A stretch of 60,121 bases of DNA, counting the filler, from Sluysia triapertura (lineage: Eukaryota), in assembly GCA_046118255.1 (NCBI GenBank). It is 5 parts of 5 records of this genome, joined end to end, with 100 filler letters (N's around TTAATTAATTAA, not from the genome) between each part and the next. Parts side by side here need not be neighbours in the genome. Positions count along the whole stretch, not along the records: positions 1 to 10,996 come from JBJNIA010190363.1; 4 more parts are not named here. One strand, given 5' to 3'. Positions 1 to 39,331 of the stretch are shown one piece after another. Position numbers and translations under genes: made by a program. The notes beneath the pieces were generated by a model. That model had not been told where the DNA came from. It searched no databases and saw only the letters and a program-made list of their open reading frames with translations. Within the stretch, counting starts at the first letter, position 1. Every line of letters begins with the position of its first letter.

Positions 1-900
1 ACTTCTTTCTTTTATTTATAATTTTATGTCTTCTACTCGTCTCCTAATTCAAAGTTGGGCAATCCCAACATATATATCCAAATGCATATGTTCTTCATAT
101 ATTGGTTTTCCATTAGTTGGCAAAAAATATTAAAAGTTAACGATATTTACTGGTACTAACGAATAACTTGTAAAGAAAATAAGTATAAAATGAAAAACAA
201 TACTTTGCAACTGTTCACTTGTGGAAATTCATTACAGTAATACAAAATACACAAAATACATTAAAGGTCTATTTAATTAATTTCAAAATTAATTCTTATT
301 TGAAAACGGTATAAAATAAAGGATTAAAAAGAAAAATTACTATTTTTTTGCGCAACAGTTCTACTAAAATTGTAAAACGTTCAATCGTGAACATAAAAAA
401 TGAATAAATAGATGAATTGAAATTTCATTTTAAATAAGTACTGATATTAAATATTTTAAGATATTTGCTATTGCTGAAATAATTTTATTTAGATATATCA
501 ATCGATGCTTATTTTAACAATATTAGGTAAGAGTACTTTTAATTTTGAACGAAGTTAAATTTTAGATAATTTTAAAACTTCCGCTATAATAAAACTAATT
601 AACAAATAAAATTGAAATTTTGCAAAATTGTTAGAGCACGAAGTTCTCACAAAATCCATCATATTGAATATTGCATATACAGGTTTATAATAAATTCATG
701 ATGAATTAATAGCATAAGTTCTAACAAAATACAATGTTAACCTTGAATTTAAATTTATTTTCAGAATATAGTTTAATTTTTACAATGATTTTACAAATTA
801 TAAGGTTTACAATAATATACAAATTAAAGTTTTATATGTTGCTTTCAAAAAGAACTTTAGCGTTTTATGAACTAAAGCACCTCTATATTATATTTAATAA

Positions 901-1422
901 ATGTTAAATAAAAATTATTTATTTGACTTAATTTTATTTATACTGCCAGGTTTCACGTATTTATTTATATGTAAATATACAAAGGTGGAGGAGAGTTTTA
1001 ATATCCAGGCCATTCATGATATTTTATATGTTCGATTCAATTTTTCTGAGGTGATTTTTAATTTTGTATTATTATTTGTAGTATGACCACAAAGTTTTTC
1101 CTGGTGTTGTGCCTAGGTCTTTTGTTTTACCTTTGATAATTTCAGTAATTTCTCATCCATTTATTATTTTTAAGAATTTGTTAACAAATGATTTATTTTA
1201 CAGTCAAATAATTGGTATGTGATTTTACTCTCAGTAATTTTAATAAAGTTAGGTTATCAATATTAATTTTGTGTATTATTGCTCAATTTCATTTTTATCT
1301 AACAATAAAGAAAATATTTAGTATTCATGTCGCACATTATTATGCTTTGGTTACAAGTTTACAATTTCATATTAATTTTTATGCTTCAAGAACATTGCCG
1401 AACAGTTTCGCTTTAATTTTGA
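901..1422 (+). CDS. ALG12: ALG12 Dol-P-Man alpha-1,6-mannosyltransferase, 5' part only (exons 901-1050, 1082-1214, 1249-1422)
   Basis: Splicing a 31-nt intron (1051-1081) and a 34-nt intron (1215-1248) gives an open frame with [38 protein letters not shown] and [18 protein letters not shown], all hallmark ALG12 motifs. A GT donor follows at 1423. I could not find downstream exons (e.g. DSxFW, PHKELRF) in this segment. Confidence 0.88.
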
Positions 1423-2228
1423 GTATGATTTATTTTAATTGTATTATTTACAAATAAATAATAATATTTTATTTAAGCAATACCATAGTTGTATATGATT
1501 AAATTATACTGCTTACATAACATTAAATCATTTTAATTTATTAAAATTAGGTATTAAATTTCTATTTTTTGGAAATATTAAGTTTGATTGTAACAAAATT
1601 TGAAATTTTCAAATCTGATATTTTCTGAAGTCATTTTTATTTACATTTATACATTTTCGATCTTTCGAGACAAGGATCGAATTGTTACAGAGTTTTCATG
1701 TTTAATGAGAATTAAGAATGATTTAAATCACAAAAATTTAAGTCCGAAAATTTATGTTTCGTCTTTTTCTTTGATATCTGTTTGCTCTGAAAAGAAAGCT
1801 CAATATTTTAAATATTAGAATTAGTTGTGAATAAAAATTATTTGTTCTAACCTAAGAAATAATTGGAAATGGTAAGATGTTTATTTCATTGTGTAATTAC
1901 TTATGGTTTTGAATTTTGTTAATAACTGACGTGGTTATTGAAAATTCAGTTCAATAATAAAATACTATAGATGCTGATGTCAGATTTTTTAATGTCTGGA
2001 TTGGATACTAGAATTGGATAATTTTTCAGTACAATTTGGCTGAGTTTTATAAATAAAATTTAGGTGAAAATCATTTTTTATCTTATGAGTGATTACAGTT
2101 ATCACTAAAAAATTTTTTTACAAAATTTTAACATTTGTAAAAAAATTTGTGTAACATTTAAAAAATTGTATCTGTTGTGATAGTTATACTTTATGTTTTA
2201 TTTAATCTCATATATTGATTCTAGTCAT

Positions 2229-2530
2229 TTTTAGACTTTAATTCTCGAAATTTATTCTTTTTCTGATAATGCTAAACCTGAAAGCTTTCGTATTCTGTTT
2301 GTATTCAACTTGTGTTCAACGTAAAAACCGATAACTTTATTTATATTTCTTTAATCGTTTATTTCTATTATAAGCGTTAACTTTATATTCAAAGATTATT
2401 TTCTGACTTTGCTTTAAAATCTTAATTATTAATTTAATAATTCTTGATCTAAATTAAATTATCTTTATAACTTTATCTTAAATGAGTGTGAATTCAATAC
2501 TCGTCTTTGTTCTTAAAGATAGAAGTGCTG
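2229..2530. repeat. Dispersed AT-rich repeat, family A copy 1 (possible LTR)
   Basis: Shares collinear anchors (ttttagactttaattc; aattattaatttaat; aatgagtgtgaattcaatactcgtc...gaagtgct) with 8405-8755. The last anchor is also shared with 43290-43505. Confidence 0.45.
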
Positions 2531-3419
2531 GCTAAAATTTTTATAATTGTATCCTAATTATAAAAGGAAAAACAAATCTCCATTTTCAATCTCTTTCGAT
2601 TTTATAAGGAAAGAACGAATTTTATTTAAATACGACAAACAAAATCATTTATTTAAATATATGTACAATTGAAAAAAATTTAAGACATTTATATTTAGTT
2701 TCTGAAAGATTTCTATAATAATTTAACGTTAAAAATAAACCAATATTTTATATATTATGTTGAACAAATATTACAATTAATTGTATATTAATTAATTAAA
2801 TTATACATTGACAAAAGTTATGAAATGAAAATTGTCAAAAATTATGGTAATGCTTGTGTTTAAATGCGTTTACTCGCTTAATTTGTGTGTACTCTTTTTT
2901 ACTGGCTAGTGAATAATTCAATTCACTAATTTGTTAACGCTCGCACAATGATAATTCTGAGCACGCGTGCAAAAAATGAATGAACGGGTGAACGCACTCT
3001 GTTTCTTTCTACAAAAATCCAGCCTACAAAGCCTAATTAAAATTATTATTATTATCGTAAATATACATAATGTACATACATTCTTTTCTACTTATAGTCA
3101 GTATGAAATATAGACAAAATCATTGATTTAATTCATTTTGGATTTTATGTAATTTGGAATATAATTATTATTATTTGTAAGTTTAATATTATTTGAATTT
3201 AATTATTTTGCATTGCTCTACATTTTATTTCGATTTTATTCTGTTCGATTTCACATAATTTTTTTAATACTCCTAATCAGTTTCGTCACCGGTTACTCCT
3301 GTTAGATATGAATGTTTAGTGCTTAACATTGATTAGCTTATTGAAGAAGCTACTAGCGCAGATGACCTTCATTTCTACCAAGGGTCTTCTTGCACTGTTG
3401 TAATTATTATTTGCGCATG

Positions 3420-5035
3420 TCATATAAACTAGATTTCTCGGAGGAGGCTGATATAGGTTTTGTTTTTCTTCATCTTGTTCAATATTGATTGTTTGTATCG
3501 CTATTTCTTCCGTTTTCTTTCCTTTTTAAGAACATTTAATTGAGAATGAGGGTGATGGTGTAAAAGAAATTTAGCTAAAAATGGAAAAAACCAATTATTA
3601 ATTTCCAAGTAAAACCTGATATCTTGTATATATTTACTGCAGAAAACATTTGAGATATTATAAGAGCAATGACTTTAATTATTACACATATGCCTATTAA
3701 TCCTGAAAACGCTTGTCTTATTACTAAAAAAATTCCCCATATTTGTTTTGAAGTATTATGTGCCGCTTTCTTAAAATGGTTAGGTCCTAATAATAATTCG
3801 AAATTTCTCTTACCATCATTTTCTATAATAGCCTTGTCAACTATATCCGTAAGTAATTTTGACCTTTTAATATTTCGTGCCAAGCTGCTTGTATATCTTA
3901 GAATAAATTCCTGATTTCGGAATATTTTTCGAAGCGAAAATTTTAATTTTGTTTTAATTCCGTTAAGCCTATAGTTTCCGGAGTTTTGACTTAGCACCTA
4001 TGTGGCAATATCCAAAGATTATCATCAATTTTGTATTCTGGAGCCATTACGTTAGAACAATGTAAGGTTTTTGGTTTTAGCTTATTAGTTGGCATAATTA
4101 TTGTGGTAACTGGTTCTAAATAAGCGTGGTGATTTTTATATATTACTGTCAGTTCATTAGTGAATTCATTTTCTTGTCTAATTTGTACCTCAAATTTTTT
4201 TACATTTGTAAGTGTATAAAACTTCATCCATTAATCTACCAAAAACTCCTTCTAAAGGAAGTAATAGTGCTACTAAGTCTGTGTTAGTTATTGCTACTGC
4301 TAGTTTCCTTGATTAATTGGCAGTCTCTAGTTATCATTGCTTGATAGGCTTTTTCTAAATACATAAGTCCTAAATGGTAATAACAATCAATTTTATTATT
4401 GCAATATGTATTTAATTTTAAATTTTGTATCTATCCCTTTATTTGCTTGTAATATTGTCTTTTCAGATAAATAAATTCCTTAGTAGTTAGTTTATGTGAT
4501 TTCTTGTCCGCATCTAATTACTAACTTTTTGATAGAAATATTAATCCATCTTTATTTGCCATTAAAATTGTGGGAGTTTCTACTTCATTAAATCTTTTCC
4601 TATCGGGTATATCTATATTATCTTTGTAAATTTGTTTTTATACTTATTTCTTATTTACTTATTTACTTTTACTTATGTATAATACATAAATTGATACATA
4701 ATTGATACATAAATCCCGAGATTAAATTAATTTTAAAAATATTATTGGGCATTGAAATTTTTCCAATTCGTATATTAATATAGACTCACCAGTCACAACT
4801 GGTTTGATTACAGAATGGTCGTGACATCATAGTTCCTTTTTCTAAATCAAAACTTAATACTACATTTCTTGAGCTACTACATTGTGATAAATTTTTCCTT
4901 CCTATTCTATTGGGCCTCTTTCACAAGTAACATCTATTAATACATTGCCTGCTGTCCCCTTATGTTATAAATTATTTTTTCATTGTTTTTAATTGCTTTT
5001 AATTTGTCTCCTTTATTTAAACTTATATATACAAC
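3420..5035 (-). pseudogene. Decayed chuvirus-like (Jingchuvirales-type) envelope glycoprotein gene; endogenous viral or retroelement env
   Basis: Joined across frameshifts, the minus strand reads LEKAYQAMITRDC..LAVAITNTDLVALLLPLEGVFGRLMDEVLYTYKCKKFEVQIRQENEFTNELTVIYKNHHAYLEPVTTII..CSNVMAPEYKIDDNLW..LLGPNHFKKAAHNTSKQIWGIFLVIRQAFSGLIGICVIIKVIALIISQMFSAVNIYKISGFTWKLIIGFF. Motif order and the C-terminal TM region match chuviral G as I recall it (GEVxHxxKC, ELPV, CxxxMPxxYK, WxxFxxFG..AGxIG..YGWS). Confidence 0.75.
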
Positions 5036-5108
5036 TACATTCTCCAAAAATTCCCGTGAAAGTAAAATAATAGATGAACATCGTGTTCATGTGGAATGAT
5101 AACCAATT

Positions 5109-5109
<1 letters not shown>

Positions 5110-5161
<52 letters not shown>

Positions 5162-5182
5162 TTACCACTACCACCACCACCA
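5110..5182. repeat. (ACT)n microsatellite followed by (ACC)n
   Basis: About 17 perfect ACT units are directly visible; they explain the poly-Ser ORF 5035-5241. Confidence 0.95.
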
Positions 5183-5234
5183 CTAATTCTGCTTTTCGGC
5201 AATTTCACCATCGTATCTGAAATTATAAAATAAT

Positions 5235-5820
5235 CATGCATTCCAGAAAGAACCGATCATCAAAACGAATATGTACAGTGGTAATGCTGGCGCATTACAA
5301 TTGATTGTTATCGGAACGTTGACATTGTTAATATGTATTATAATCATTGATACTATTCTCTTCATGTATCGTAACTCCAGAAGAATCAATGTGGTATTAA
5401 CTGGTACTATGAAAAGATCAAACCTCCTCAAGACATTACAAATCACGAAGACGAATCATGTTACCTGCAGATAATTTATACTTATTCAACACTCATTGGT
5501 ATCATCTTGAAAAAAGAATATTTGATCCAAAAATGAATTCGAGTATCTTATATGGATCTAGTACGATTCCAGTGCATTCAATGGTTTCAAATAATGTTGA
5601 CATAACACAAACATAAACAAATGATAAATGATAATGAAACGGTGGATATTTATCTATCATTATCACCAGTGAAATAAAAAATCGGTAACATCAATAACTA
5701 TGATGTATTTGTTCATTTTACTATTAAAAATAATCGATCAAACCTCGATTCTAATTCAACCAATATAAATGGACTTGAAAATCCGACTTGCCATTTATTG
5801 GATGAAAAATGAGTTAATTT
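5235..5820 (+). pseudogene. Fragment of a single-pass membrane protein gene (TM plus cytoplasmic tail), degenerate
   Basis: ORF 5271-5474 has a clean hydrophobic span (LQLIVIGTLTLLICIIIIDTILFMY) followed by basic residues (RNSRR). Downstream sequence is coding-like but interrupted. Confidence 0.3.
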
Positions 5821-6119
5821 TTTTACTCATTCCATTGAATTAATGAGTAACGAACATCAAATAATAATGAAACAATATCACATTTTAGTGTTATCATTTT
5901 TTATTAGTATTCATTTCGTTTTTGCGTATAATGTTTTATGTGACTTCATTTTACTTTTAATTACTAAGATAAACTTATTTAAAAAATCAGTTTTAAAAAT
6001 TTTATGCAAAATATTTGCGGAATATTTGTTTCAACAGACATTTCAATGATGTTATTCAACATAATTACAAACAATACATGCAAGAACACTTACCAATGAA
6101 TATACTATTGAATGATGTA

Positions 6120-8121
6120 ATTTCTAGTTTCATAGACATTGTAATGTTTTTAAATTTTATCATATTCTATAATAAAAGCTGTTAAATTTTGTTGTCTTCA
6201 TGCTGTTAAAATTAAGTTTTGTTTTCAAAGGCATTAAGCCTGTTTTAATTCTTAATTGTTTAATGTTTAAAGGTCAAATTTGGTTAGGTAATTTAAAATA
6301 TGTTTTATCCAAAAGTAAATAAAATTTTGAATAGTTTTAAGTCCTCCAAAATACTATTATAATTTTAAGTCTTTCTTTATTGATAGCTGCATTATTTTGT
6401 TTTGTTATAATGGCTTTATATTGCCCATTATCTATGTAGTCACTTATATTTGTATTTTTATATTTTTCTTCCATCATTTTAATTATTTTCGATAATGCGG
6501 TTTTGTACTCTTTTAATTCAGGTAACAGTGTTCTATACTTATAGAAACGAGAAAACTTGTTTGATAGTATTGCATAAACAATGTTTTTTGTAGTTAATAT
6601 TTTTCTATATTTTTATAAATAATTTTTGTTAAATTAATAGGTTTTTATGTATTGGATTTGGGATTATTATTTCATCATTATGTATCTTTTTTCTTTTTTT
6701 TAAAAGTATTTGTTTCCTTATCTTCAATTTGTATGTGTGGGTTTTCTTCAATAAGATCATCATTATCGTGGTAATGTCTAATTTTACCATTATCCATATA
6801 ATAATAATAAATATTTTTGTTATAACTATCTCCCACTAATTCTTTTAGTAATGATCGTTGGGTTTTATCTAAATCAACATCATCTTCATTTATAAGTTCA
6901 TCTAATTTACTTAGTATATGCCATTATAATTGCGGAAGTCATTGATGCTTCCTCATGGTTTCCATTCATTGATGGATAACCGTAATCATCTATAAAAACA
7001 TTTCTTTAGTTTCTTTAGTTTTCATTTCTGGGTTATTCATTTTAACGTTAGCTGATATTACTATTATTGTTTTTATTTCATTTTTCATTTCTTCTGTGGC
7101 ACAGTAATACGCATCCTCTTCACCTATATCCACTTCTGCTTGTAATACTTCATCTTCAGTTTCCACTTCTTGATCATCACTTGAACTTATTTCTTCGTTT
7201 GACTCTGGTTTATTTTCTTTGTCATTTATTTCTTCCTCTGTATGACTGGATTCAGCATTTGGTTCTACTTCTGTTTCATCGTTACTTTTGATTCTGAATC
7301 TATTTCTTTATTGACTTTCCTATTTGGTTCAATTTTTTTTGATTCACCTTCCCATTTATCAAGTATTTGTTGAATTCTTCATTTGTAATTACTTCGTTTA
7401 TTTCTTTTATTTCTTCTATTATTTCTTCCATTGGTTGGTTTAATATTTCTCGAATTCTAACTTGAATAGGTTGAATTTTCCTCTTTCTCGTTCTCTACTT
7501 TGTTAATTTTTTTGAAATTCTAAATATCTATGGTTTATGAAGCTCAAAAAACTTGCTCTTGTTTATTTTTGAATCTATTTTTATCACAATATTTATATTT
7601 ACCACAAAATTTTCGAAGCATTGTATTCTTTTCTTCGTTGGTTATTAATTTAATATATTTATCATCTTCATCACTACTAATTTCTCTTGGTTCTTTGTTC
7701 TTGATTTTCTTATTTCTTTTCATCCTCATATTCATTTCTGTTATCTCTAAAATTATAATCTTTTTGATTTATGTCCATTATTTCTTATTATTATCATCAT
7801 TAAATCTGATTTCCTATTAGGGTTTTGTTATCTTTGATTATCGAAGTTGATTATTGGTGGCCACCTCGGTGCTGGTCTTTGTTCATAGTTAGATGCACCA
7901 TAATTACTTGTTCTATTATTCTGAAATCGTCTACTTCTAATATTATTTCCTCTATAATTATAATTATTTGAATTACCCCTATAAATATTAGAAATGCTAC
8001 TACTATTAAATCTATTGTAATTGTTATTTCGATTATTATTATTATTATATCCATCATAACTTGAGAAATTATTCGTATATCTATTATCATTATAATTATC
8101 GGAATTGTTTGTTTGGCTCAT
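6120..8121 (-). pseudogene. Long degenerate ORF upstream of the chuvirus-like G (N/Y/R-rich N-terminus, E/K-rich middle); function unknown
   Basis: ATG at 8121 opens MSQTNNSDNYNDNRY..RGNSNNYNYRGNNIRSRRFQ..RPAPRWPP. It continues through frameshifts into KEPREISSDEDDKYIK and WHILSKLDELINEDDVDLDKTQRSLLKELVGD, with the same purine-rich strand bias as the G region. Confidence 0.5.
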
Positions 8122-8332
8122 TGTATCGTTTTAATGTTTTATTTTAAAATTTAATTGGTAATTTTTCATCTTTTAATTAAGAATTTCACTTTAAGAATCT
8201 TATCGCACATTCTTATAACATTCATGAACATTAATTCGGATATTTGCAGGCATTCGTTTTACTTAATTTACAGATCATTCAAATATTCGATTTGTAGGCA
8301 AAATTTGATTTTATTTAGATATTTGCAGACGC

Positions 8333-8370
<38 letters not shown>
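8333..8370. repeat. (TA)n(TG)n microsatellite
   Basis: Directly visible. Confidence 0.95.
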
Positions 8371-8404
8371 AAAATTTAAAAACATTAACTGATAATAGAC
8401 GTTG

Positions 8405-8755
8405 TTTTAGTCTTTGATTTCTTTGAAATCTCTTCTGTGCTAGTTTAAATAATGATATGCGTTTTGATTTAATCAGGCTCACGTATCAATTTAGTTGTAG
8501 TCTTTAACTCTTATAATTTATTCTTAATAATATCGAACTCTTAATAATATGGACTTTTAATATCTCGATCTTTTTTGGTCTATTTATTAAATTGGAAATT
8601 ATAATTATTAATCTAATGAATTTTCACTTTTACTTTCGGTCTTCTCTGTAATTTGATTCGATGTACTATTATATGAATTTTAATTTATTAAATATCCTTT
8701 GTTTCAGAGAATGAGTTAGATCTCGTCTCTACTGTTTGAGATGAAAGTGCTTAAT
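8405..8755. repeat. Dispersed repeat family A copy 2 (possible LTR)
   Basis: ttttagtctttgatttc / aattattaatctaat / aatgagttagatctcgtc...gaaagtgct are collinear with 2229-2530. Confidence 0.45.
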
Positions 8756-9099
8756 CAAATAATATGTAATATTATCTCTTCTCATCCTATCCCGAATTCC
8801 CTCTACACGCTTTTAATAAATTAGATAAACAAATTAAATTAGTGAGAGTGGTTTTATTTAAATCACTTTTTAAAACTTTTACTAAAAAATTTGTGGTTTT
8901 TGTTTTTAAGTTATGGTTTTTAATAATATAAAGTGGTGAATTTATTAAATTATATGTATGAATAAGATTGAAATATCTTAAGGATATCTAAATACTTTAT
9001 CGAAATTTCAACTTTATTACTAATTAATGTAATATTTGGCCTGATTTAACTTTAAATAAAAACATATAACACAGAACAATTTACCAACAAAACGAAAAT

Positions 9100-9800
9100 A
9101 TAATAAAAATTTAGTTTATGAAAAATTAAAATCGTATTAAAGTATTTTATCAGTAAATTTTCGTAACATCCGCTACATGTGACATTTAGATAATTTGTTG
9201 GCCGAGTAACATTTAGTATGGAACTAAAAGACGAGATCTTCACTATTTTATAATTATGGAAATTATGTAGATTTTCTTTAAATTCATTCATTAAATCAAA
9301 AACTAAATTATACATTACATGAATAAAGTTAAAAGTCTGGTGAATTCGTTGATCATTAGTTCGACAACATTTACCTATAAATTGTCTATTACTAATTGTA
9401 CAATGTTAATTTAATTTATTACAACTAACACCATCTTTATAATTTCAAAGGTTGAATTAAATTTACTTTATCAGGAGTGTTCACATCGATGATGTCATGT
9501 ATTTTAGATTCAATTGGATCTTCAGGTTCAGTATCATTAAAATGACAGCCTATCTCTATCATAGTAGAACGAAATCCAGTATTTATTCTAAAAATGAGAT
9601 TTCCAATAATTGCTCATTCATTAATCAAATGATATCCAAACTAACTGAAATGATTTGACGTTTCGATTTTAACGCTTCATTTAAAAATAACTTGTAATAG
9701 AATATCGTGTTTGCCATAAAACGATAGACTAAAAATATTAAAAATAAAAAGAACATAAAAGTATTACTTTCAACACGTCTAGTTATGTATAGGTTACCGG
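9100..9800 (-). pseudogene. Possible spliced gene remnant with a CxxC motif (OB-fold/Zn-like); unidentified
   Basis: Coding-like blocks GFRSTMIEIGCHFNDTEPEDPIESKIHDIIDVNTPDK and KISSFSSILNVTRPTNYLNVTCSGCYENLL lie next to plausible GT/AG sites, including a candidate 39-nt intron at 9729-9767. Stops prevent a clean gene model. Confidence 0.25.
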
Positions 9801-10699
9801 ATAATAATTATGAATAAGCTTTTCAATAATTTTACAAAAAGGGAGTAATTGATTTTTTAATAACAATTTTATTTATTTAATTATTAACAGCCATATTGGC
9901 TTAAAAAATTTTTTATTAAACTTTTAATTCTTGTTACTACTATTATTATCATTATTTTGCTAACATTACAATACTTTAAAGAATTTAACATTAAGTATAA
10001 AAAAATAGACAATTTTAAATTAACAATATTAAAATTAACTTTCTCTCAAATAAATATAACAACGTTTATTTACAGAATTTTAATAACACTATCTTAGGAC
10101 TAGTTATTGTTAGTTTACTAATTCAGAATCAGAACTAGGAATATTTAAAAGAATTAAAATATATGTGATTATTTCTGAAAACGTTATTCAAAAAAATTTT
10201 ATTCAGATTAAACAGTACATATATCATGCCATTCATTCCAAACCTCCGACACATTTAAAGATGACAAAATCAAAATGCTTATCAATAAAGGAATGATATT
10301 ATTCTTTGAAATGTAAGCTGGCTATTGTCAACTTTACAATTTTATATCATCATTATCTTTGTCTCCGTTGGGTGTGTTTGGTTCATTGTCTTTGTTTTGT
10401 TTTACTTGGCATCGGATTCTTTATGTTATCATTCTTTATCCTCATCGGATGTGTTTAAGTAGTAGTTATGCTTGTCTTTCTTAACATTATTTAATTCACT
10501 TCATACTGAAATCTTCGCATTATCATTGTCTATGTCTTCGTTAGATGTTTTTAAATCATCTTATCATTGTATTTATTTAAGTTGTTTAACATTGAAATAT
10601 TGATTCTATTAGTTGTTTACATACATAAATTTCCTCGAAATCGATATTGAGTGTGCGGACTCGAAATTATCATAGAGCTTCGGTTGGAGAAAAAAATGA

Positions 10700-10894
10700 A
10701 AATATGATAGAAGACTAGGAAGAATTGAGTGTTTTTTTATAGAAATTTCATTGTTATAAAGATTATGCCTAGTTTTAAGTTTTTAGAGATTTTTATGTTG
10801 GTGTATATATACGATTGTATATATATGTTTAATATTTTGTGTGTTAATTGCGATCTTTTGTTTATTTGTTTTAAATGATAGGTTTTGAACCACC
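10700..10894 (-). repeat. LTR-like repeat family B copy
   Basis: Starts GGTGGTTCAAA, has a C/A-rich body, then aatgaaatttctataaaa, as at 55703+ and 58445-. Confidence 0.5.
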
Positions 10895-10996
10895 TATCAT
10901 TTTATTTTCTTTAGTCAACATTTTGACTATGTTTTTATGTATTCATAATTCGCCATGTAAGAATACAATACATAATGAAATGAAATGAAATGATGT

Positions 10997-11096
10997 NNNN
11001 NNNNNNNNNNNNNNNNNNNNNNNNNNNNNNNNNNNNNNNNTTAATTAATTAANNNNNNNNNNNNNNNNNNNNNNNNNNNNNNNNNNNNNNNNNNNN
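10997..11096. other. Artificial contig spacer (44N-TTAATTAATTAA-44N)
   Basis: The identical 100-bp six-frame-stop linker occurs four times. Confidence 0.98.
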
Positions 11097-11178
11097 AGAA
11101 TTTGTGACAAAGTGTGACAAGGGGGAGGGGGGTCTAAAAAGGCCATTTTTAGTGTGACGTGTTTTCCGAACGACCCCT
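11097..11178. mobile_element. Terminus of a non-autonomous DNA transposon/MITE (superfamily uncertain)
   Basis: GC-rich island; the reverse strand reads (TA)AGGGGTCGTTCGGAAAACACGTCACAC...CCCCCCTCCCCCTTGTCACACTTTGTCACA. This resembles a terminal architecture common in invertebrate MITEs. It is cut by the spacer. Confidence 0.55.
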
Positions 11179-14100
11179 TATTATAAAATAATTTTCAACA
11201 GGTAATAACTTAATCTACTTCCTATAAAAAAGTAGATATAAAATGTCAAATTGCTGGAAGATTATGAAATATTTAAGAAAAGAGCAAAGTTATTTCTGCT
11301 TCAGAAATATTATAGTGAATGATTTACCTTAAGCGCTTTGAGTACTTTCGCAGTAGATATGAGCGCAATATAAATTAATATATTATTATTAAAATTAATA
11401 TTATTATATTTAATTTATTTATTACAAAAATAAAATAAGTTACAACGTTTTATATCTCTACTTGTATTATAATTCTAAAACAATAAAATATTGAAATTAA
11501 GGCTCTGGATTTAATTGAAATTAAATTTAATCAGATTTTGAGTCTATTATGTTTGTGAATTTACCTAGATTTTAATCCTTCTATTAAAGGGAAAGATTTA
11601 AATAATTATTAACTTAAGACTTATTAATAAACTTCGTTCAAGCTGCAAGATATCAATTGTTTGGATGACAATGTTCCAAATTATAAATCGTTTAATTATG
11701 AATTCCGAATCGAAAGATTCACAAATGTTCAAATTCCACAAAAAATAAAGATTACATGATCAACGATATATATGTTGAAACAATCGTTTTCAATTACTCT
11801 TTATAGATAACTTTTGTATTCGTTGTAAATATTGTATTTTATACAATTATTTTTGGCTTTTTATATTGGAGTTAATGTGGGTATCACATCCAACAAATAA
11901 TGAATCCAATATTATTCGATATGGCTGTTATATACAAAATTGTAAATATAATATTAATAATTAAAATATTTTTTGTTGCACATTTATTTTCTTTTTTTCA
12001 ACCAATACCTTGTAATGTTTTCGATGAACTTAATTTTCGATTTGAAGAAAGTGCTGGTCACTTTCGGATAACTCTCATCAATATCTACTTTAGCACATTT
12101 TTGCATTAAATACATCATCCCATTCATTAGCTTATAATTTTACACTTGTATGTGGTAAACCAAACCAACAATTAAACCGAGGCTCATAAACTTTTGACAA
12201 TTTATTTAATTTATTTGTTAAACCCATGGTAAATATTTCGTAAAATGAGACGCAATAAGACGGCTTGTTCTGGGTAAACCAAATATATCTTAATTCAAAT
12301 CTCGTTTTAGAACCGATTACATAATTATCTTATTAAATCTCGATGGTCTAAACTGAGAACTTTTTGTTAACCACATTGTATCAAACGAAGGCATAAATCA
12401 ATTAACTTAAACATGTTTTTACAATCCTTTTTAACTTTTGTTATTGTCCAACCTTCTTGAATACGATTTTGTAATCTTTTATAATTCATTCATAAAATGT
12501 ATAATTTCATCAACTTATTACAACTACTATTTTATACAGCATACGATCTTTTCGGTATCTTTTCAAAATGCAGTATCAAAATTTTATAATTTTGTGCAAT
12601 TCACTGATAATAAATAACATAGGTGACAACAAATAATTGGTGGACTGAGTCATTTTGAATTTGACATAATAATTATTGCGCATTACATAATACATTAATT
12701 CACAACTTTATTATAATCGATATTATTAAGTTCCTTTTTAGTTTTTTATGTAAAATGATCAATAACCATCCAATAAACTTTTGCGTCGTCATTCGCATAA
12801 TACTTCAAATTTGAAACGCTTTTCGTTGAAAACCTTAAACAAACTGTATAATCATGACTTTCCCTGTGGAAGGGAAATATTAATCCTCAAATCTCGACGT
12901 ATCTCTACAATTCTTCGATTTTTATTTGTTTGTCTTTCTACCTTTATTTAAAATTCTTCGTTAATGCTGTCAAACATGATTCAGATTCACTCTACATTTC
13001 TTCATAATAATGGGTACTACATAAACCTTTCGAAAACATCTTTTGGTAAAATCAAAAGATTAATTCCTAAAATTTAAAATTCGAACGCGTACTATTGTTA
13101 AGTCAAAAATTTTACAGCATTTCTGTTCTTTATTAAATAATTTAAAAAATTCGTCCTTACAAATTTATAATTCAAAGTATATCTGTTATTTTTTTGTTTC
13201 AATAACAATAATAATAAAATTTAATAAAACTAATTCAAAATAATAATTTTAATAAAAATTTGAATAATAAAAAAATCAAGAAACTATATTTCCAGTATAG
13301 ATCTATATACGATATTCAAAAATGTAGCGCATGTTAGTGTGATTAATGATTCTTTTTATAATTAATCATATAAATTAATTAATATTAATTTGAAACTTAA
13401 TACTTTTTATCAGTCCAATTCATAAATAAAACGATTTATTTATAAAAATATTAATTTAATGTTTTATTATGAAATTATAAAATTGACAAAAATAAATTCA
13501 AAGGCATTCAGTAATGTTAAAATAAAATCTTAATCACAAAATAAACAGAAAGATTACGAATCAAATAGAGAACTCAAGGAAAAAATTACTTGGTGTTAAC
13601 AGCACATTTCAGCTAAGTTGAACGTAAGTGCTAATATAAATATGGAGTAAATATGCCATATATTCATATAACTTTAACATTGTTACAGAACTATTATAAT
13701 TCGACCAGATGTTGTTATTTATCATTATGAATCCTCTTATATTACAATTATAATTTCTTTAAAAGGAAGATTAGGATAAAGGTAAAATTTGGTTCATTAA
13801 ACCTATATTTGGCAAATATAATTATATCTGGTCCTGACAATCTTTGAACTTATATGACTAATAATAATAATGAGGTCAATTAATTTTGATATTTTAAAGA
13901 AATTAAAGCATAATCATAATATTAAATGAAAGTAATAATCTCCATTTGCAAGAAAGATTAATGAATTTATTATTTCAAAAGTTAAAGGTTTTGATAATGA
14001 GGATATGGGAATTGGTGTGATATTATGTAATTATGTATGCCAAGCATATTTTAATGTGTCCAAAATGAATTTTTGCCGCTGTATGTAGTGTTGAAGGTAT

Positions 14101-14819
14101 ACATTGAATATGTTTTAGTATGCATTCAAGATGAAGTTCCGCCTATGTATGTTGCATTAGTGATGTAAAAAATCATTGGCGAAAGATTGACTTACTATAA
14201 TAATTAGTAATAATATTAATGTCATGTCTTTATTAATTAAAATTTCTTTAGTTTCTGTATACGCTATCTTTTGCATAATTATTAAACAATTTAAAATCTA
14301 TTTTTTGATTAATTGTAACTGGTTCATACAAAATACCGTCAGTTATATTTACAATTATACAATAAAAATTAAAATGAGTACTTCATTGACAAAATTTTTA
14401 TAGATACTTGAAATACTCTCCTATAATATCATTTAAAATTAGAACATAAACGTTGAATTTGAATTACGAAGTGAAAAAACATTTTTTTCAAAATTACACC
14501 AAAAAATTGATAAAATTTACTTAAAATATATCTTTAAAGAAATTTTAAAATAAATTCTACCATTATTTATGTATTTGGTATTTTTTTAAATTTATAATAA
14601 TTGAACAAATACTTTAAATTTAATGTTCGTGGAACTTTTGGTACTTAAAATAAACAATTTATGAATGTAAATGTGATTTGATTGCAAAGACAGTTAATTT
14701 TAGGTTATACTACCAACAGAAACTATCGATAATTTCATTGCAATTGTGCCCATATAAACATTTGATGAATTAGTTAGCCATTAAAGTACATTAATTATTT
14801 ACTAATGACTGTTAGATGA

Positions 14820-15240
14820 ATAATTTGAAGTTGTGTTGACATGTGAACTTCCATTTTCATATTGGATAATTCTTGTAACACAAGTAGCATGTGCTGTCCA
14901 AATATTAAGATGACCATAACATTCTTTTATACCATTATTTTTTTACCAATCTTTTCAGAATAAAAATTATAATGTTTTTCTGCTGAAAGTGCTGCTCTCA
15001 AATCACCATTATATGCAGTTGTAACTTTAAGACTTTTAACTCCATGAAATATTTTACTAGTTTCCAATGATCTTTCCATAAATTCAATTGCTTTGTCATA
15101 ATTTTGATTGGCGGTTAGAATACTATCAATATTTGGCATGTCTGGATGAATAACTCCACGACATAATAAAGCATTAAGCATTAAACATTAACTCCATTAC
15201 ATGCGAATGAATAAAGACCCATATGAGGATATTCTTGAAT
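14820..15240 (-). pseudogene. CLUH: Clueless/CLUH C-terminal TPR fragment, decayed
   Basis: YPHMGLYSFA..ALLCRGVIHPDMPNID..NYDKAIEFMERSLETSKIFHGVKSLKV..GDLRAALSAEK..FYSEKIG..KECYGHLNIWTAHA..ENGSS parallels CLUH (LALYCFA..GEDHPEM..YDLSLRFLENAL..HGPKALKV..FRSALQHEK..GSS). It carries stops, frameshifts and short deletions. Confidence 0.72.
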
Positions 15241-15299
15241 AACATTATTAGAATCATTTATTAGGAAATATAGAATATATGAAAGATTGCTTATTGATT

Positions 15300-15920
15300 T
15301 ATTAACCTGTGGTTGCGAAATGAATTATGCTTTGGTATGACTTTAATGTTTAAGTCTGTGGAAGATTTTTAGAATTAAATTGTTTAATGCAACGTTATTA
15401 TTGAATAGTTTATAGTTGAATTGGTTTAATAAGTAATCGTTGTGAATTAATTGATTGTAAAAGTTGTGAGGCAGTTATTTGTTAAAGATGTAGAATGCAG
15501 AATGTATGGAGAATGTATGATCTTTAAACGTGTAATTATAATTAAAGATTCGTTGAGTGCTTTCTGAGTTGAAATGTGATTTTGTTTTATTATTGAGCCT
15601 TCTTGTATTTAGTGTTTGAAATTTATGTATCTTATTTGTATCTGTTTGTGAATTTGGTAAATGCATTGAATACTGTATGGTGTAGATTTTTTGAAATTAT
15701 GTTACTTGATGATCTAAAACATGTACATGCGAAGTGAGTTTATGAATTAGATTATGTGATTAAATTTAATCACATGAAGGGTTTTGTTGAGTATTTTATG
15801 AATTGTAAAGTGATTTACACTTGAAAAAATGTGAGATTATAATGTCTTTTCTGAATTCTAAGATGTTTATATAATTTTTGCGTAATTGTTGTAAAGGTTA
15901 TAAAATGAACCACCACGACA
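15300..15920 (-). repeat. C/A-rich LTR-like repeat (family B related)
   Basis: Begins TGTCGTGGTGGTTCA at 15920, with strong C/A strand bias like the other family B copies. Confidence 0.4.
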
Positions 15921-17119
15921 TTAGTGAAAAACTTTAATGAAAAATTGAACACATTAAAATGATAGTAAGTAAATAACCAACAAAAAATAAGAATGTTTAC
16001 TTGCATTCTATTTTTTCTTCACTGTTGAATCAAATCGCTAAATAACTTAAAGACTTAATGACTTAAAAATGATTCACAATTGTAAATAAAACATGTGTAT
16101 TATTAAAAATGCTAGTATTATTTATAAATGATTTTATTAAGAAATTTCAAAATTAAAGCAATTTTGTATTGTAATTTTACAGAAGAAATAATTTATTCTC
16201 AATTTATGCTGCAATAAATTTCACGTGATTTATTGTTTTACAAATTTGGCAAAAATTATTGTTATTTCTTGGCGCAAAAGCAGCAACTTGGCATTTATCA
16301 AAAACTTCAGATCTTTATTAACAACTACTTATTGATTATGATCCTTTACTTAGGTTATAAATATTTTGAATCAAAATTTATTCGTGAGAGTTCATTTACA
16401 AAATTATTAAAATTTTCGATCAGTTGAATAGGATTATAAATTCTTATATATGTTTAAACTCAAAGGTGATCAAATAAATTTATATTAACTAAATCAAAGT
16501 AATTCAAGTTACACTAAAATTAATATTTTGTATTTAATGTATATTATTGAACATGAAAAATAATTAAATATTTTTCATGACAGGTTCAAATATGTAATTT
16601 AATCGCACTTTAGAGCGCGTTAAGATTTTCAATAATGACTTATTCACCCAAAGGTGAAAACTCCTATATTTGTTTGTTTTTATACCAACAAAAACAATGG
16701 TATAAAACTGAAACAAAACAGAGAAATGATTATTTGTACGACTGATATATATTTCGTACGCTATTGCAGTATTTCATTTATAGTTGACTGTCTGAGTTAA
16801 CAAGAAAAGGTTGTTTTTCAAAATTATAAAAGGTATTTGTAAATAATAATCGTCACTAATAGGATAACCTAACTTTACTCTAATCAAAAATAACCAACAC
16901 CATAAATTGAGTAATAAATGGAAATTTATTTTTGTCAAACATTAATTAAGATTGCACAAAGGAAAGAATGCACATTTTATTGTTTGATCGTATTGTGCAT
17001 TTCTTTCCAGTAAAACATAATGTGCAGAAAAATTTGATTTAAATCCGTATTAAAATCATTTAATGATTATAACAGATTTGCATATGGAAAAAATATTTTA
17101 AATTTGAAGTTTATTTTTT

Positions 17120-17295
17120 ATTCGGAAACATGTCGATTTGTAAAGCAATTTTATTCTTTACTTACAATACATAAATTTGATAGTTTATTTTAAGTAATTA
17201 AAAATGTTATAAAAGGATGGGCAATTCGATTACAAACACGGAAGACGTAATTCCATTTCACCTGACAAAGTACACGAAATGATTTATAAATTAAA
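17120..17295 (+). mobile_element. Possible hAT transposase C-terminal dimerisation domain remnant
   Basis: ETCRFVKQFYSL...RRNSISPDKVHEMIY resembles the hAT pattern RxxLxPxxVxxL; heavily decayed. Confidence 0.3.
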
Positions 17296-19779
17296 ATTTA
17301 TTATATAGAGAGAGTAGGAGTTTATGGAATAATCTTAGATATTTTTGAAACAAAGTATAAATTTATTAAGTTATGCAATTAACACATTGAGAATAGTATA
17401 CTGTGAAAGTATATAGCCTAATCCCCGTATACTTTTTGTAGATATTTAATAAAAAGTGATAACAAGAGGTATTCATAATATAGTGTAACACTTATTAAAG
17501 TATAAGTAATGTTCATCATATGCATTTAAAAATATAATAAATATTATAATATTTATTTGTAATTCTAATTTATAGTACGATTTGTCATGAAATTCCAAAA
17601 AACATGAATTTCCGTCATCGGTCCTCATTGTATTAAATTGAACAATTTAACAGTAAAAATAGGTTACTATAGTTACTTTAGTTTATTGGTGGTGTAACAA
17701 AAATGTAATCGTCTGTTGCTTTAAAATTAAGTTGGACTTATTGCCTTTAGATTTATTTTTGACTATTACTTGAAAATTATTTGTAAACTTTAAGCAAATA
17801 AATATTTACAACACTTTACTTTGGTTTAATTTTATAATAAATAACTTAAACTGTCACAATACTTTGACTAATATTAATGATTTTAAAATCTTAATATAAA
17901 CAGTCTCTCTCTGTAAAGTTGTGGTTTTAACTCGTCTAGGAAGTAAGAGATGAAGGTGTAAATAAAATTTTAAATATTCTTTCAGAGTTAAATCTTTGTT
18001 AATTCTTAAAACTTATAAAGATACTAAAGGTATAAAAATAGCACACTTAAAATAAAATCTTACTTTAATAATTGTAAAATTATGATCAATTTTTAGGGTA
18101 TTGTACTTACATGTAATAATAATCGAAGTTCAGTAATAACAGATGTCTGTTTCCAAATGAACAATCTTGTGTTTCCAATTAAACAATCTTTTTAATTCTT
18201 ATAAACAGATGAGATCTTTATTATATAATTTTTATAATGTTAAATATCTCCTCATACAGTATTTTTCACGGATACTTTTCTTGATTATATTTTATAATAA
18301 TTTCTTTCTAATCATATTTTCTCTCTAATTAATTTTACTGTATAGTTATTTTTACTCTGTAATAAAATATGCACTTTAATCTATTGCAGATATTTATTTC
18401 TGTATGTCCTACTTCATTCTAAAATATAATTCTGGCTAAATTTTCATCCTTTTGTCATTTTATCTATTATAGCTACATATTCTGTAATATAAATAACTGT
18501 TTCTATTCGTCTTAGCATCAATTCGGGTCTTTTCACCTCTCTAATGTTCTTGCTTATTCTTCAGCTGCTTTCTTGGCTTATTAGTATGATAAGCTCCATT
18601 CTTATTTTTCTTTTATTTTTTTGAATGCATTTATGAATCGTTTTTCCATTTTCAAATTTCAAAGTTTTTCTTATGTATATTAAGGTTTTTGGATAGTTTG
18701 TTTAAGGATTTATTTCATTAAATATTTATTTTAAAATTAAATGTTAATATTATATTTTTATTTCTTTACATTATCTTATTACTTTGTAATTAGTTGTGCA
18801 TAGAATTTCTGTTCTTAAAAGGCATCATTGAAAAGTTGAAATATATATTTAACGTTTAATTTAATTTGTAAAAAATAAAGCTCCAAGAGCACATAAAATA
18901 TCTAGAAGGCTAAAATATTTCAAAAAATAGACAAATTATAAAGCACAATGCCAAGTGACTAAAGCTTAAAGACGTGAAAGAAAGCCAACGTCAATATCAT
19001 CCTCTTCGATTAATAATACAACATTTATTTGTAAACTTTAGATAAATATAAATTCTATGACACAATTGTTTTTAATCAACTCTATAATAAATAACTTCAG
19101 TTACTTGAATTGTCAGAATTTTTTGATTTTAGAACTTAATGTAAACAGTCTCTTTTTTGTTGTAATGTTCGAAAGCGTTTAGTTACTAAACTTTAGTATA
19201 TAAATTATACAAATTAATCAAGCGTTTAGCAGAGTTAAAGCTATAATTTATAAGAATTGAATGTAACATGAAACTAAATTTAATAAAGATTATTAAGTTA
19301 ATTAAGATTTTTAATTAATTAATCCATCTTTAGACTTAATTTTATTTTATGTTTAAAGGTTTTATTAAGGTTTCAAGGTTATTTAGCAATTTATAAATCA
19401 CTGGATGTTTTCACCTTCACCTCTCTGATTCCTTTTTCTACTTCATGTTAATTATTATTATACTAGATATATTCTCAATACCAATAATTTTGTTTCTCAA
19501 TTATTTTAAAGATTTTTAGCACTTTATAAGGTTACTAAAGGATCTCAAATGCTCATCGATGCTCCAAGATACTTAAAAGTTACTAAGGTCTTAAATGATC
19601 CAAAGGTTCCAAAGTTCAAAAGGTACCTTAATGCTTCTAAAGGTCTTTCAAGTCATCTCAAGCTTCTATAAGGTCTCAAACCCTTATACAGGTTTTTAGA
19701 ACCTTAAGATATTCTTTCGCTGTTAAGATTATTATAAATGTTTTCTTTTTCATGATTCTTATTTCAGCAATGTTTATAA

Positions 19780-19871
19780 TATTCAGTCCACTACTTGTAT
19801 CAGTTTTTTCTCATTTTATGATTTTATATGTTTTCAGTCATCTCCAAATCCACAGTTGGACAATCCCAACA
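19780..19871 (-). repeat. LTR-start-like repeat family C (second copy at 1-70)
   Basis: TGTTGGGATTG(C/T)CCAAC..GGAGA(C/T)GA..GAA occurs on the minus strand starting at both 70 and 19871. Confidence 0.45.
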
Positions 19872-20319
19872 ATAACATAATTATAAAAAAGCTTTTGGAG
19901 CCGGACCAGGCGTTGGAATTCATATATAAAAATAATTACTCTAAACTTTGAGTATAATTATTAAAATTTAAATTCATTTAATCGCTGAAATAACACACAT
20001 GTCTATAAAATTCATATCTTTTAATCTTTTGTCATTCATGAACAAAAACAGAAAATTTTCATCATTAATAACCAAACATATTGCCATAGATTTAAATTTT
20101 TGATGATAACAAAAATGTAAATGTTTATAAAATTCAAATCTTTCAGCTTTCTGTCATTCTTGAGTAATAACAGAACATATGTATCATTTAATAACTAAAT
20201 TCTTTGATCCTACAATGAAATGTTTAGTAGTGTAGGAAAGTATTAAGTATATCAAATATTAATCTCATTAGTATATACGTATCACATAATCACATATGCA
20301 TTGATTAAATGCTTAATAT

Positions 20320-20645
20320 TCTAAATTAATACATTATAACTTTTGGAATTTAATAAATATAATAAGCAAATTATTGTATAAATTAATATTTATTATACTA
20401 TTTACAAAGTATATGAATTAATTAAATGCTTATTACATATAACATATATAATTAACATTGTAACTTACTGGAATTTAATACAAGCAAATTATTTGAATAA
20501 ATATAAGTAAATTACGAAATTGGAATAAAATTGTCAAGTAAACTGCATTATTGGAATGAATTAATACACAATTGGCGCTATAACGAAGCAAGTTATTGGA
20601 ATAAATTAATTAACAAATTAAATACTATTGGAATTTATTACATAA
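20320..20645. repeat. Degenerate minisatellite (ttattggaat...aagcaaa units)
   Basis: At least six recurrences of (a/c)ttggaat(t/a) with aag(c/t)aaa at irregular ~25-60 bp spacing. Confidence 0.5.
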
Positions 20646-21149
20646 CTAATATATGAGGACTAACGAATCAGAAAATAATTTACAACAATATTGCACAGAA
20701 ATATATCATTTATTTCACAAATAACAAAATATTCAAATAATCTTATCAGGATTAACTGTAAAGATAAGTTTGACAGAAAAACATAATATTCAACGAAGGA
20801 ACTAAAATTATTGCATAAGCGAGTTAATATAAATTTTAAAACTATTAACAATAAAAAAATAAAAAATAACGTACGGTTGCGATTAATACAATTTCATTTT
20901 AGTTTACTATTTTTTATTAAACCGAAAGGGAGAAAATTTGAATTTTAAATTCGTAAAATAAATTGCACCAGAGACCAGCAGAACTAACCTGCAGAATTAA
21001 TATAAATATCTAGTTGAGATTTCATAAAGACTAATCTAAAAGTAATCTAAGATCAATAACAATATTCATAGAGGAACGAATTAGTAAAAATTTAAACACA
21101 AAATTAATTTAAGTAAAAAGAAAAATATATAACAAAACTTTTACTGATA

Positions 21150-21520
21150 ACAAAAGTGTATGTTCACATTAAAATCTTCTATCCTTCACGAACACATGTA
21201 ACATTAATAACTAAATGATGTGATACTTTTAAACTCTTAGTGATAGTACAACACAGATCTTGAAACAAACAGCTTTATCCAAAAAGTTTTAAAAAAGTTT
21301 CAGATAACCAAATAATCATTCAAATTTTAAAATATTATTCATTGAATTTGTACTTCGAAATAAGCTTTCTCATGTAACTCCATCAGATAAGATTACATTA
21401 AGTCGATCAAGCACATCTGTTCATATTCCCAACTCACATTTGCTATAATGCCAAACTTTATTTTTCTTAATTTCTTCGATCAAATCCACATCAGTTATAT
21501 TTCTTTCTCTCTATTTTCAT
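21150..21520 (-). pseudogene. HUWE1: HUWE1 extreme N-terminal fragment, decayed
   Basis: ATG at 21520 gives MKIERKK (cf. MKVDRTK). After a frameshift it reads DVDLIEEIKKNKVWHYSKCELGI*TDVLDRLNVILSDG (cf. [35 protein letters not shown]). Multiple stops. Confidence 0.7.
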
Positions 21521-22022
21521 ATTTACTAATAATACAATAATTCAAATATATACGTAAACTATAACTTCAATTAATAAGAAAATTTAAAGTATATAGAAAG
21601 TATTGAGAAATTTCAAAAAAAGTGTAATAAAATATATATTTTATCATTATTTCGTTCAATAATCTAAATTAATACATTTTTATTATCGATGTAGGTATAA
21701 TTAAAATAAGTAACTGTTTTTAAAAGAAAAACTATGATTTTTATTATTTAACAAAACATACGTTTCTTTTAAAAGTTTTGACAATAATAAACAAATATAT
21801 TTTTCTTTTCGTTTAATTTTATTTACTAAGTTAGCATTACTTATTGAAGCTCTTCGATTTGGTAACAAAACATAATAAAAGCATGCATACAAATAACAAA
21901 TTAAAACAAATTTATATAAACATTTTTTCATTTTGAATTTTATGTTTACTTATTTTAAATAGGAAATCTTTTTTTGAAAGCCCTACAACTATGGTAAATT
22001 GTAGAAATAACTACTTATATTA

Positions 22023-22122
22023 NNNNNNNNNNNNNNNNNNNNNNNNNNNNNNNNNNNNNNNNNNNNTTAATTAATTAANNNNNNNNNNNNNNNNNNNNNN
22101 NNNNNNNNNNNNNNNNNNNNNN
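22023..22122. other. Artificial contig spacer
   Basis: Same 100-bp linker. Confidence 0.98.
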
Positions 22123-22734
22123 TTCGTTAAATGAAGAAATTAAAAACAATAGAAAATTTAGGTTTTTAATGTTAGCGACTTTTCTGAATTAAGTCTAAAT
22201 TAATTTGAAAATGTCAAATTAATTTTCGTAAGCTTTAATATTATATTTGTGTATCTAATATTATTTAACGTTTAGTATTTTATTGACTATAATTTTGATT
22301 TTTATTCTCTGATTTTTGACTAATCCAGCTCAAATTTAGTTATAATATCATAATCTTTAGAAAATATAATACTTTAATTATTAATTTAAATAAATATTTA
22401 TAACCAGATTCAGAGTTGTGATATATAATATGGATAATTCTCAATTAATTAACTTATTAAACAAGTTTTAGCAAATCAATTATATTTTATATTAATATTA
22501 ATACCAAATTTAATATTTTTTACTAATTTAATTTATGCTTAATAATTTTTATATCATTAATAAAGTAGTCTTAATTATTGTGTTAAAATGTAACAGAATG
22601 TTAAAATGTAACAATCACAAAAAATGTTTACATGGTAATTGCGAAAAATAATGAATTAATTACTTTCGGAAATAGAATACTTAATTTTAATAGGTTAAAC
22701 AAGAAAAAACATAATTTTGAATAACGGATTCTAA

Positions 22735-23085
22735 TAAAGTCGTATGTAGTAATGATCACGTTTCTTTTTGGAATATCAATTTCCTTTTAAATCGTGAATG
22801 TTTCAAAATGCATGCAATGATGGAATACTTGACAAATTTCCTTTTAAATGTGAGTCTATAAAGGTATTAGGCGGAATAGAGGTTTACAGCATATTTTTGA
22901 TAAGAAAAGTTAAAGAAACACTGACAGATGCTAAATACGTACAATTAATGAGGTATGACATTTTTATACGAATTACGTGGAAGATTTTCAAAACAACACA
23001 CATTCTTATGTTTTACAAAATCGATTTAAGTCTTGCAGTGTAAATCTTCTAAATTGGCCTAGTTATAGTTCTGATATTCTAGAAA
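22735..23085 (+). mobile_element. Tc1-like transposase remnant
   Basis: SIKVLGGI..RKVKETLTDAKYVQLM (cf. SVMVWGGI..GTLTAxKY) and VNLLNWPSYSSDI (cf. WPSxSPDLNPIE). Confidence 0.6.
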
Positions 23086-38405: not shown

Positions 38406-39331
38406 AGTACAGACGTCGATAAACAAGTTTTAATTTTTTCCTTAATAATTGTGCTAAATATAGTTTCGGTGACCCAATATTCTAAGTTTTCAAATAATTT
38501 CATTTTTTCTTAAGACTTCATAAATTTCTTTTAAATAAGAAATAACTGAATTAATGTACCGAAGAACTTTTGTTAATAGTCAAAATTGTTGTAAACTTTG
38601 ACATCTCCATCTATTTTATTTCGTGTAAAATTCAATTTTTTAAATTTTTTTCTTTTTCTTATTTGCATAACATAAATACTCAAAAACTATCAAATCATTG
38701 ACACAAATTTGTATGCTTCTCTAAAAGATAACACCTTCTGCGGTGTTTCAATTCTTACCTACGATTATAATGTATTAGTTACATATGCATCCACACATAC
38801 TCAAACCTCAACTTACACTCATTTCAAAATACACTTAAGGAACATTTAGTACTAACCGAAGTCTGATACTCATGATAGCAATACATGACCTCATAAAATA
38901 CTAAGTGTAAAAATTTTAAATAAAGTTAAAATCCTAATTATAGACAGTAGTAATATTGACTCTAACTTTTGTAAACACTACAGGAATATTCGTTATTATT
39001 GCAATTCACGCTATCGTCGCCCTAATTTATCAGTTGTATCTATTGTTATGGCACAATTGTAAAGTATAGTAACAAGCTTGATTTTGATATCGTAATTAAG
39101 AACATAATTGAATTAAAAAGTTACTTTAAGGCACCATTAATTCTTTTCAACTATTATTTACTATTACTTCTGTTAATCTGTAAATGTCTAAAGATTTAGC
39201 AATCCAACAAACTAATATTGATGCTGTTAAAGCTAGATAAATAGCAGTGGCGTTGGGTGATTTTGGAATTGATATTTTTATTAACCAATTTTATGAGAGG
39301 AATATGTTATGATGTCAAAAATTGTTTTAGG

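Follow-up and report, generated by a model that had tools for sequence, protein, structure and literature searches.

A decayed class III envelope gene in Sluysia triapertura, probably from a truncated Burro-like Ty3/gypsy retrotransposon

The planarian retrotransposon Burro (GYPSM1), a giant Gypsy-like LTR element, is described as present in thousands of copies, with a 4,873-aa open reading frame (ORF) containing Gag, knuckles, Ubi/SUMO-like, BCL2, and ankyrin domains. Its envelope gene (env) is reported to match mononegavirus fusion proteins and to lie in frame between BCL2 and the protease (PR); the same report records Burro fragments decaying in Dugesia japonica and leaves the role of the accessory domains open (PMC6431247). 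Abundance of Burro and Gypsy elements in planarians has also been reported (PMC11410931). Ty3/gypsy elements of GAG-ENV-POL order with a glycoprotein B (gB)-type envelope are catalogued from Nematoda, Bryozoa, and Platyhelminthes, with nine flatworm rows, six of which are from Schmidtea mediterranea (Smed_errantivirus_1-6; 1-215 intact copies) (PMC13524379). Here, a 60,121-nt stretch of the Sluysia triapertura genome (GCA_046118255.1), referred to as the window, was analyzed. The window is AT-rich and its five pieces are separated by N-linker-N gaps, and an env-bearing repeat sits on the first piece (positions 1-10996).

This repeat was best explained, at a probability of about 0.86, as a dead copy, truncated twice over, of a Ty3/gypsy retrotransposon of the Burro-like kind. 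The homology and decay of env, the gag-env-pol order of its relatives, the depth contrast with the flanks, and the absence of reverse transcriptase (RT) at the locus were demonstrated. The features of the repeat, with the evidence for each, were as follows.

3570-4955, minus strand: pseudogenised gB/mononegavirus-type envelope gene, N-terminally incomplete (PF24664, tblastn, frameshift-aware profile)
3169-3387, minus strand: likely retroviral-type aspartic protease remnant, directly behind env (env-proximal protease profile; no catalytic D-T/S-G motif)
3181-3200, no strand: 3' break of the repeat from high-copy to low-copy DNA, no terminal repeat (depth 50,299 at 3201-3220 vs 529 at 3181-3200)
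5100-6300, no strand: low-copy interruption with approximate edges, containing an (AGT)n tract at ~5103-5190 (depth, skew)
6337-6612, minus strand: 91-aa frame where relatives have a Bcl-2-like helical domain (suggestive match)
6620-7820, minus strand: broken basic and acidic frames, putative Gag-to-Env linker (composition, depth)
7828-8130, minus strand: Asn/Tyr/Arg-rich open frame, 100 aa (translation; no Pfam match)

The PF24664 family was matched in two minus-strand frames, with E-values of 1.1e-8 (profile positions 486-619, 34 bits) and 4.4e-6 (384-463, 25.4 bits), the weaker of which fell below the cut-off of 27 bits. A frameshift-aware profile aligned env (4955-3570) to profile positions 120-594 of 598 over 435 matched codons; the reading frame was broken by about 9 frameshifts and 8 in-frame stops. 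A piece from the middle of env scored 45.2, and the highest of 40 shuffles reached 17.8. The frames read as a glycoprotein with a cysteine pattern, in which the hydrophobic membrane region lies at the C-terminal end (~3742-3578), and the summed tblastn identity between env and its relatives was 29-45% in all 15 tested (best E 3e-55). The signal peptide and the first ~119 profile positions were not found in the three places searched (upstream, within the interruption, and beyond), where 6/40, 25/30, and 5/40 shuffles scored as high. A sequence search of the PDB returned one irrelevant match (E 0.44). Judged from its sequence, the glycoprotein is real. Because of the ~17 disabling breaks and the lack of a signal peptide, this copy of env would yield no full protein. 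The element copy would not move on its own.

One env frame was searched against 1.84 billion representatives and 15 proteins were returned (labels beginning with P denote proteins and those with L metagenome loci). PF24664 was present in all 15; seven ran on into retroviral-type aspartic proteases, and two (P0003 and P0006) reached RT, RNase H (RH), and integrase (IN). The cluster members P0016 (4,844 aa, with ankyrin) and P0019 (3,003 aa) were env-PR-RT-RH-IN polyproteins. An env pattern scan yielded at least three loci (L001-L003) from at least 594 stretches of metagenomes, and none from viral contigs (458 stretches) or prokaryote genomes (118 stretches). In L003, a single frame of 2,693 aa contained the capsid-like, knuckle, env, DTG, and YLDD motifs, and in L001 a frame of 3,426 aa contained env together with three DTG sites and YIDD. 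The pol parts of both were read by motif only. L002 contained gag, knuckle, ubiquitin-like, and weak Bcl-2-like domains, followed by env after one stop. No long terminal repeat (LTR) was found on L001-L003, which are short contigs. With a 140-aa env frame, an alignment search recovered only P0005 and P0021, and a word-based search recovered none among 228 candidates. Every full-length relative found carried pol.

In front of env, the relatives had a nucleocapsid region rich in N/R/Q/G and a linker of acidic composition; 5 of 12 also had a helical domain with GGW at its end. The N/R/Q/G-rich stretches surrounded the zinc knuckle in L002, L003, P0006, and P0009. Weak Pfam matches were obtained to Bcl-2 (P0005, E 0.00096; L002, E 0.025) and to the Ty3-type families Ty3_capsid (E 0.0035) and Peptidase_A2B (E 1e-4). 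Behind env, the first recognized DTG motif lay 106-349 residues past the end of the membrane region in 11 relatives.

Several further properties of these polyproteins were observed. One to six DTG protease motifs lay behind env in P0001-P0019 and L001, and several of the same polyproteins ended, past integrase, in an apparent further signal-peptide-to-membrane region, as seen by eye. A 496-aa accessory ORF with an RNase T/DEDD exonuclease match (PF00929, E 1.4e-5) was located behind the gag-env-pol frame of L001 (10617-12107, plus strand). The P0006 gag-env-pol polyprotein was deposited under the name of a Flavobacteriaceae metagenome-assembled genome, and likely represents eukaryotic contamination of that bin. 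The long open frames of L001-L003, P0016, and P0019 could be useful material for asking why Bcl-2-like, ubiquitin-like, and repeated protease domains are carried.

The class III (gB/mononegavirus-type) nature of env was indicated by PF24664, by tblastn, and by the fold of a relative. The structural model of P0005 (mean predicted local distance difference test score 56) matched chuvirus-type glycoprotein G (best E 5e-38, 22% identity) and herpes gB (E 3.5e-13), in both cases with low global TM-scores, and Atlas was concordant. The identity of P0005 was at most 22% to each of the 50 viral glycoproteins among the matches listed. An earlier note on this DNA had proposed a chuvirus-like glycoprotein and had staked the call on a profile or structure match to chuviral G, and a profile match was obtained for env and a structure match for its relative P0005. 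The fold call is right in that env belongs to the chuvirus/mononegavirus-type class III fusogens, but its nearest kin are retroelement env genes, and it is part of a mobile element rather than a stand-alone chuvirus gene. The same note's suggestion of a new env-bearing element, or of a non-autonomous cassette of a nucleic-acid-binding ORF plus a fusogen, was not borne out, as the nearest relatives are gag-env-protease-RT-RH-IN polyproteins, each in one frame, of a kind already published. These are of the Burro or GAG-ENV-POL errantivirus kind, so the novelty, which had been made to depend on copies falling outside any described env-bearing family, was lost.

The frame directly behind env (3438-3139) was chosen by eye beforehand and three protease profiles were tried. 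It scored 8.5 bits with the env-proximal profile, which was equaled by 1 of 2378 other pieces of the window and by 1 of 2000 shuffles; 2 of 2000 shuffles were as high with the mixed profile and 88 of 2000 with the RT-proximal profile. An aspartic protease remnant at this place is likely but unproven. Across 24 frames between 1.5 and 9.9 kb, Pfam gave no match to RT, RNase H, integrase, L, or N, and six relatives' pol parts had zero matches within the env-bearing repeat, which agreed with the previous statement that none of these lay inside the unit. The RT, RNase H, and integrase that mark the Burro-like class were absent from this copy. RT is probably missing because the copy was truncated, with low-copy DNA beside both ends, and the copy was classed as a fragment derived from such an element rather than an intact one, because it has no RT, IN, or LTR. 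Separately, a remnant of the RT-connection/RNase H region of a decayed LTR-retrotransposon was observed on another contig piece (56500-57099, minus strand; PF17919, E 4e-5). Its RNase H part (56871-56623; tblastn E 2e-7 from L003) was the only clear match of the relatives' pol parts in the whole window, and a link to the env copy was not seen.

Contigs were aligned to the window at 80% likeness, and depth was the summed contig depth from one public run, possibly the assembly's own, which gives a contrast only and not a copy number. By this measure, depth was 6,000-160,000 over the repeat and 12-280 beside it, that is, hundreds of times that of the flanks in this one run, as for a dispersed multi-copy sequence. 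Depth was 15,307-51,627 over bins 2968-5239 and 6,247-24,784 over 6376-8079, compared with 99-278 over 8080-9783, 84 over 2684-2967, and 8-26 for exact-match single contigs. Among the 7,364 aligned contigs, 498 were at least 99% alike and 5,861 were less than 95% alike.

On the 3' side, depth was 50,299-159,730 over 3201-3280, and a patch private to this copy had a depth of 12 (3321-3360). The 3' junction is not an assembly error because exact-match contigs (2497-3053, 3026-3164, and 3148-3417; depth 12-16) tile 2497-3417. On the other side, high depth reached ~8079 and dropped at ~8080 into low-copy DNA. Both ends lay within coding-like sequence. The repeat does not stop at the bound given previously (3420) but runs past it with high depth to 3201 over the likely protease remnant. 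No long direct or inverted repeat, LTR, or terminal inverted repeat (TIR) was found around the repeat by a repeat search and flank-versus-flank blastn. The first piece ends at 10996, so that distant ends are out of view, and primer binding sites (PBS) and target site duplications were not searched separately. One contig joint (3063-8081) connected two (ATT)n tracts and was discounted for its low complexity. The repeat was read as a large dispersed family, with the env copy as one of its diverged members, bounded by the protease and the N-rich frame and lacking a repeated terminus.

The earlier note had described a decayed minus-strand coding run of ~4.7 kb, with an Asn/Tyr/Arg-rich N-terminus, an acidic/basic stretch, and a cysteine-patterned glycoprotein with a C-terminal membrane region. 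All three parts were recovered, the first as the 100-aa frame (8130-7828), the second as frames at 7768-6990, and the third as the PF24664-matching env; the decay and the strand also stood. The run was not continuous, however, as 5240-6091 was low-copy and the minus-strand A skew was lost over ~5100-6300. Depth in this interruption was 57-100 over 5240-6091 and 826 over 6092-6375, with a unique contig (5571-6069) at depth 17. The interruption occupied the expected place of the env signal peptide and N-terminus, and had no match to Pfam, Rfam, or the env N-terminus. Rfam gave 0 matches over 2000-10990, and a promoter scan, by a method unsuited to a eukaryote, was at chance level.

The Asn/Tyr/Arg-rich frame may be the low-complexity nucleocapsid/linker region of Gag, and the upstream frames in general appear to be of gag-linker origin. 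Strand, skew, order, and depth suggest that the upstream block is part of the same element as env. Compared with the pre-env regions of the relatives, the upstream block scored above 12 shuffles in 8 of 11 cases, by small margins explicable by composition. The 91-aa frame gave a weak 5.1 bits against a profile of five relatives (81 of 2000 shuffles as high) and showed 36% identity to P0021 by BLASTP over a stretch of 36 aa (E 0.005 in a set of 12 sequences). A three-sequence capsid profile gave 6/30 and 12/30 shuffles as high, and only composition and position fit Gag. An Atlas search of the upstream frames returned nothing specific. Farther upstream, A-rich DNA at 8080-9500 was mildly repeated (depth 99-278) and had no capsid match; it could be a diverged 5' part.

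The host was likely a planarian or near relative, judged from one exon on another piece. This SLC37-like exon (42577-42915) had its best match in Schmidtea mediterranea (60% over 107 aa, 132 bits), compared with 92.8 bits for the runner-up (120 hits listed of 379 found), and a loop insertion was common to the exon and Schmidtea. A flatworm host, as in the Burro-like and GAG-ENV-POL class, was indicated through this exon. An ALG9/12-like mannosyltransferase gene was also observed on the first piece (900-1460, plus strand; PF03901, E 2.9e-7), with a predicted 31-nt GT-AG intron (1051-1081) that would keep the frame. Ultra-short introns, mentioned in the earlier note, do not point to an unexplored lineage, because microintrons are reported to be frequent in flatworms (PMC6530080).

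Burro resembled the relatives in having an env of mononegavirus-like type that is placed in frame after gag and before the protease, and in its Ubi-like, Bcl-2-like, and ankyrin domains, and resembled the env copy in its high copy number, likely planarian host, and reported decayed fragments. The copy differed from Burro in being ~5 kb long and without RT, RH, IN, or LTR; the two were likened by gene order, not by sequence, and a family was not assigned. The flatworm gB-type errantiviruses shared the env type, the gene order of the relatives, and the host phylum, and motifs common to two Platyhelminthes_C1a env rows, the window, and the relatives were seen by eye only (PMC13524379). The Smed elements are likewise listed without LTR or PBS, and the env copy fails the criteria of that survey, which kept intact elements only (PMC13524379). 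Anakin, a mosquito BEL/Pao element with a chuvirus-derived glycoprotein, shared the Pfam fusogen family and has many defective copies (PMC7642597). It differed in retrotransposon superfamily and host, and in the relatives found here env precedes the protease and the weak Pfam matches are of Ty3 type. BEL/Pao elements carry their own Pfam marks, and no BEL/Pao-specific Pfam family was found in the relatives. Endogenous G elements of Chuviridae/Jingchuvirales shared the fold and the Pfam family, at an identity much lower than that to retroelement env; an element of that kind was not indicated, with no L or N and with retroelement polyproteins as the nearest long relatives. Troyka (PMC12440569) was a false lead.

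A truncated Burro-like copy would have arisen as follows, by comparison with Metaviridae. The intact ancestor would have encoded a single polyprotein of Gag, accessory domains, Env, protease, RT, RNase H, and integrase, which would have been cleaved by its own protease or proteases and copied through RT and integrase. The class III fusogen may have served cell-to-cell passage. After insertion, pol beyond the first protease and the 5' gag/LTR part would have been lost, the low-copy interruption would have been acquired over the start of env, and stops and frameshifts would have accumulated. Several results weigh against this explanation. The relatives all come from outside this genome, in which no intact copy was seen, and 8 of the 15 are fragments (74-748 aa) that show no pol context. 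The likely protease remnant gives a weak signal and was picked by eye, and it failed two tests, with no Pfam match and a frameshift-aware result that was not significant (7/100). The upstream block had no significant match to gag capsid, knuckle, or Bcl-2, and no joint linking it to the env block was present among the 15 of 237 joints displayed, so that these could be two repeats. Such chance adjacency of an env-protease fragment of a Burro-like element to a different repeat (6376-8079) was considered unlikely; the lack of significant upstream homology and the ~1.2 kb of low-copy DNA between the blocks would fit it, but the blocks share strand and A skew, the arrangement and composition are like those of the relatives' pre-env region, and a weak Bcl-2-like signal lies at the expected place. 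The verdict of a truncated Burro-like copy is unchanged by it.

A family that had lost pol as a whole, keeping gag-linker, env, and protease and being copied in trans by autonomous Burro-like partners, with this copy as a worn member, would fit the missing RT, RH, and IN and the high depth of both the env and the upstream blocks, no intact copy having been seen. Defective env-bearing BEL/Pao copies are, moreover, reported as common in mosquitoes (200 of 263; PMC7642597). A mobile unit nevertheless needs repeated ends, and here both ends drop to low-copy DNA inside coding-like sequence without LTR or TIR; with pol also present in every full-length relative, this history was judged improbable. 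A literature search for env-only elements of this sort listed a single, unrelated paper, which speaks neither for it nor against it. Its fuller form, an abundant derivative of Gag-linker, Bcl-2-like domain, class III fusogen, and protease that is packaged and spread by autonomous partners, is a long shot. If true, an animal rich in stem cells would host an envelope element that behaves like a satellite, and wider interest would follow only if such a defined pol-less envelope family existed. An endogenised chuvirus or mononegavirus glycoprotein mRNA, or a solo glycoprotein domesticated by the host, agrees with the PF24664 match and with the fold of the relative, which is nearest to chuvirus-type G and herpes gB. 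This reading is already largely refuted and by far the least credible, as the breaks and missing signal peptide leave no protein, the sequence is highly repeated, its nearest sequences are retroelement polyproteins, and no L or N lies nearby. As a truncated Burro-like copy, the locus makes this a further flatworm genome in which a large gag-env-pol family has decayed, which fits the published work and leaves it unchanged.

Three other sequences were observed on the remaining pieces. A broken piggyBac-type transposase (37664-38344, minus strand) was matched by PF13843 in three frames. A ubiquitin hydrolase-like sequence (39330-39640, plus strand; PF00443, E 0.0013) had a frame change without an evident intron, and would be either a pseudogene or an assembly error. 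A 222-aa frame (45793-46461, minus strand) had no Pfam match and presumably resembles the C-terminal zinc-knuckle/endonuclease part of an R2-type non-LTR element.

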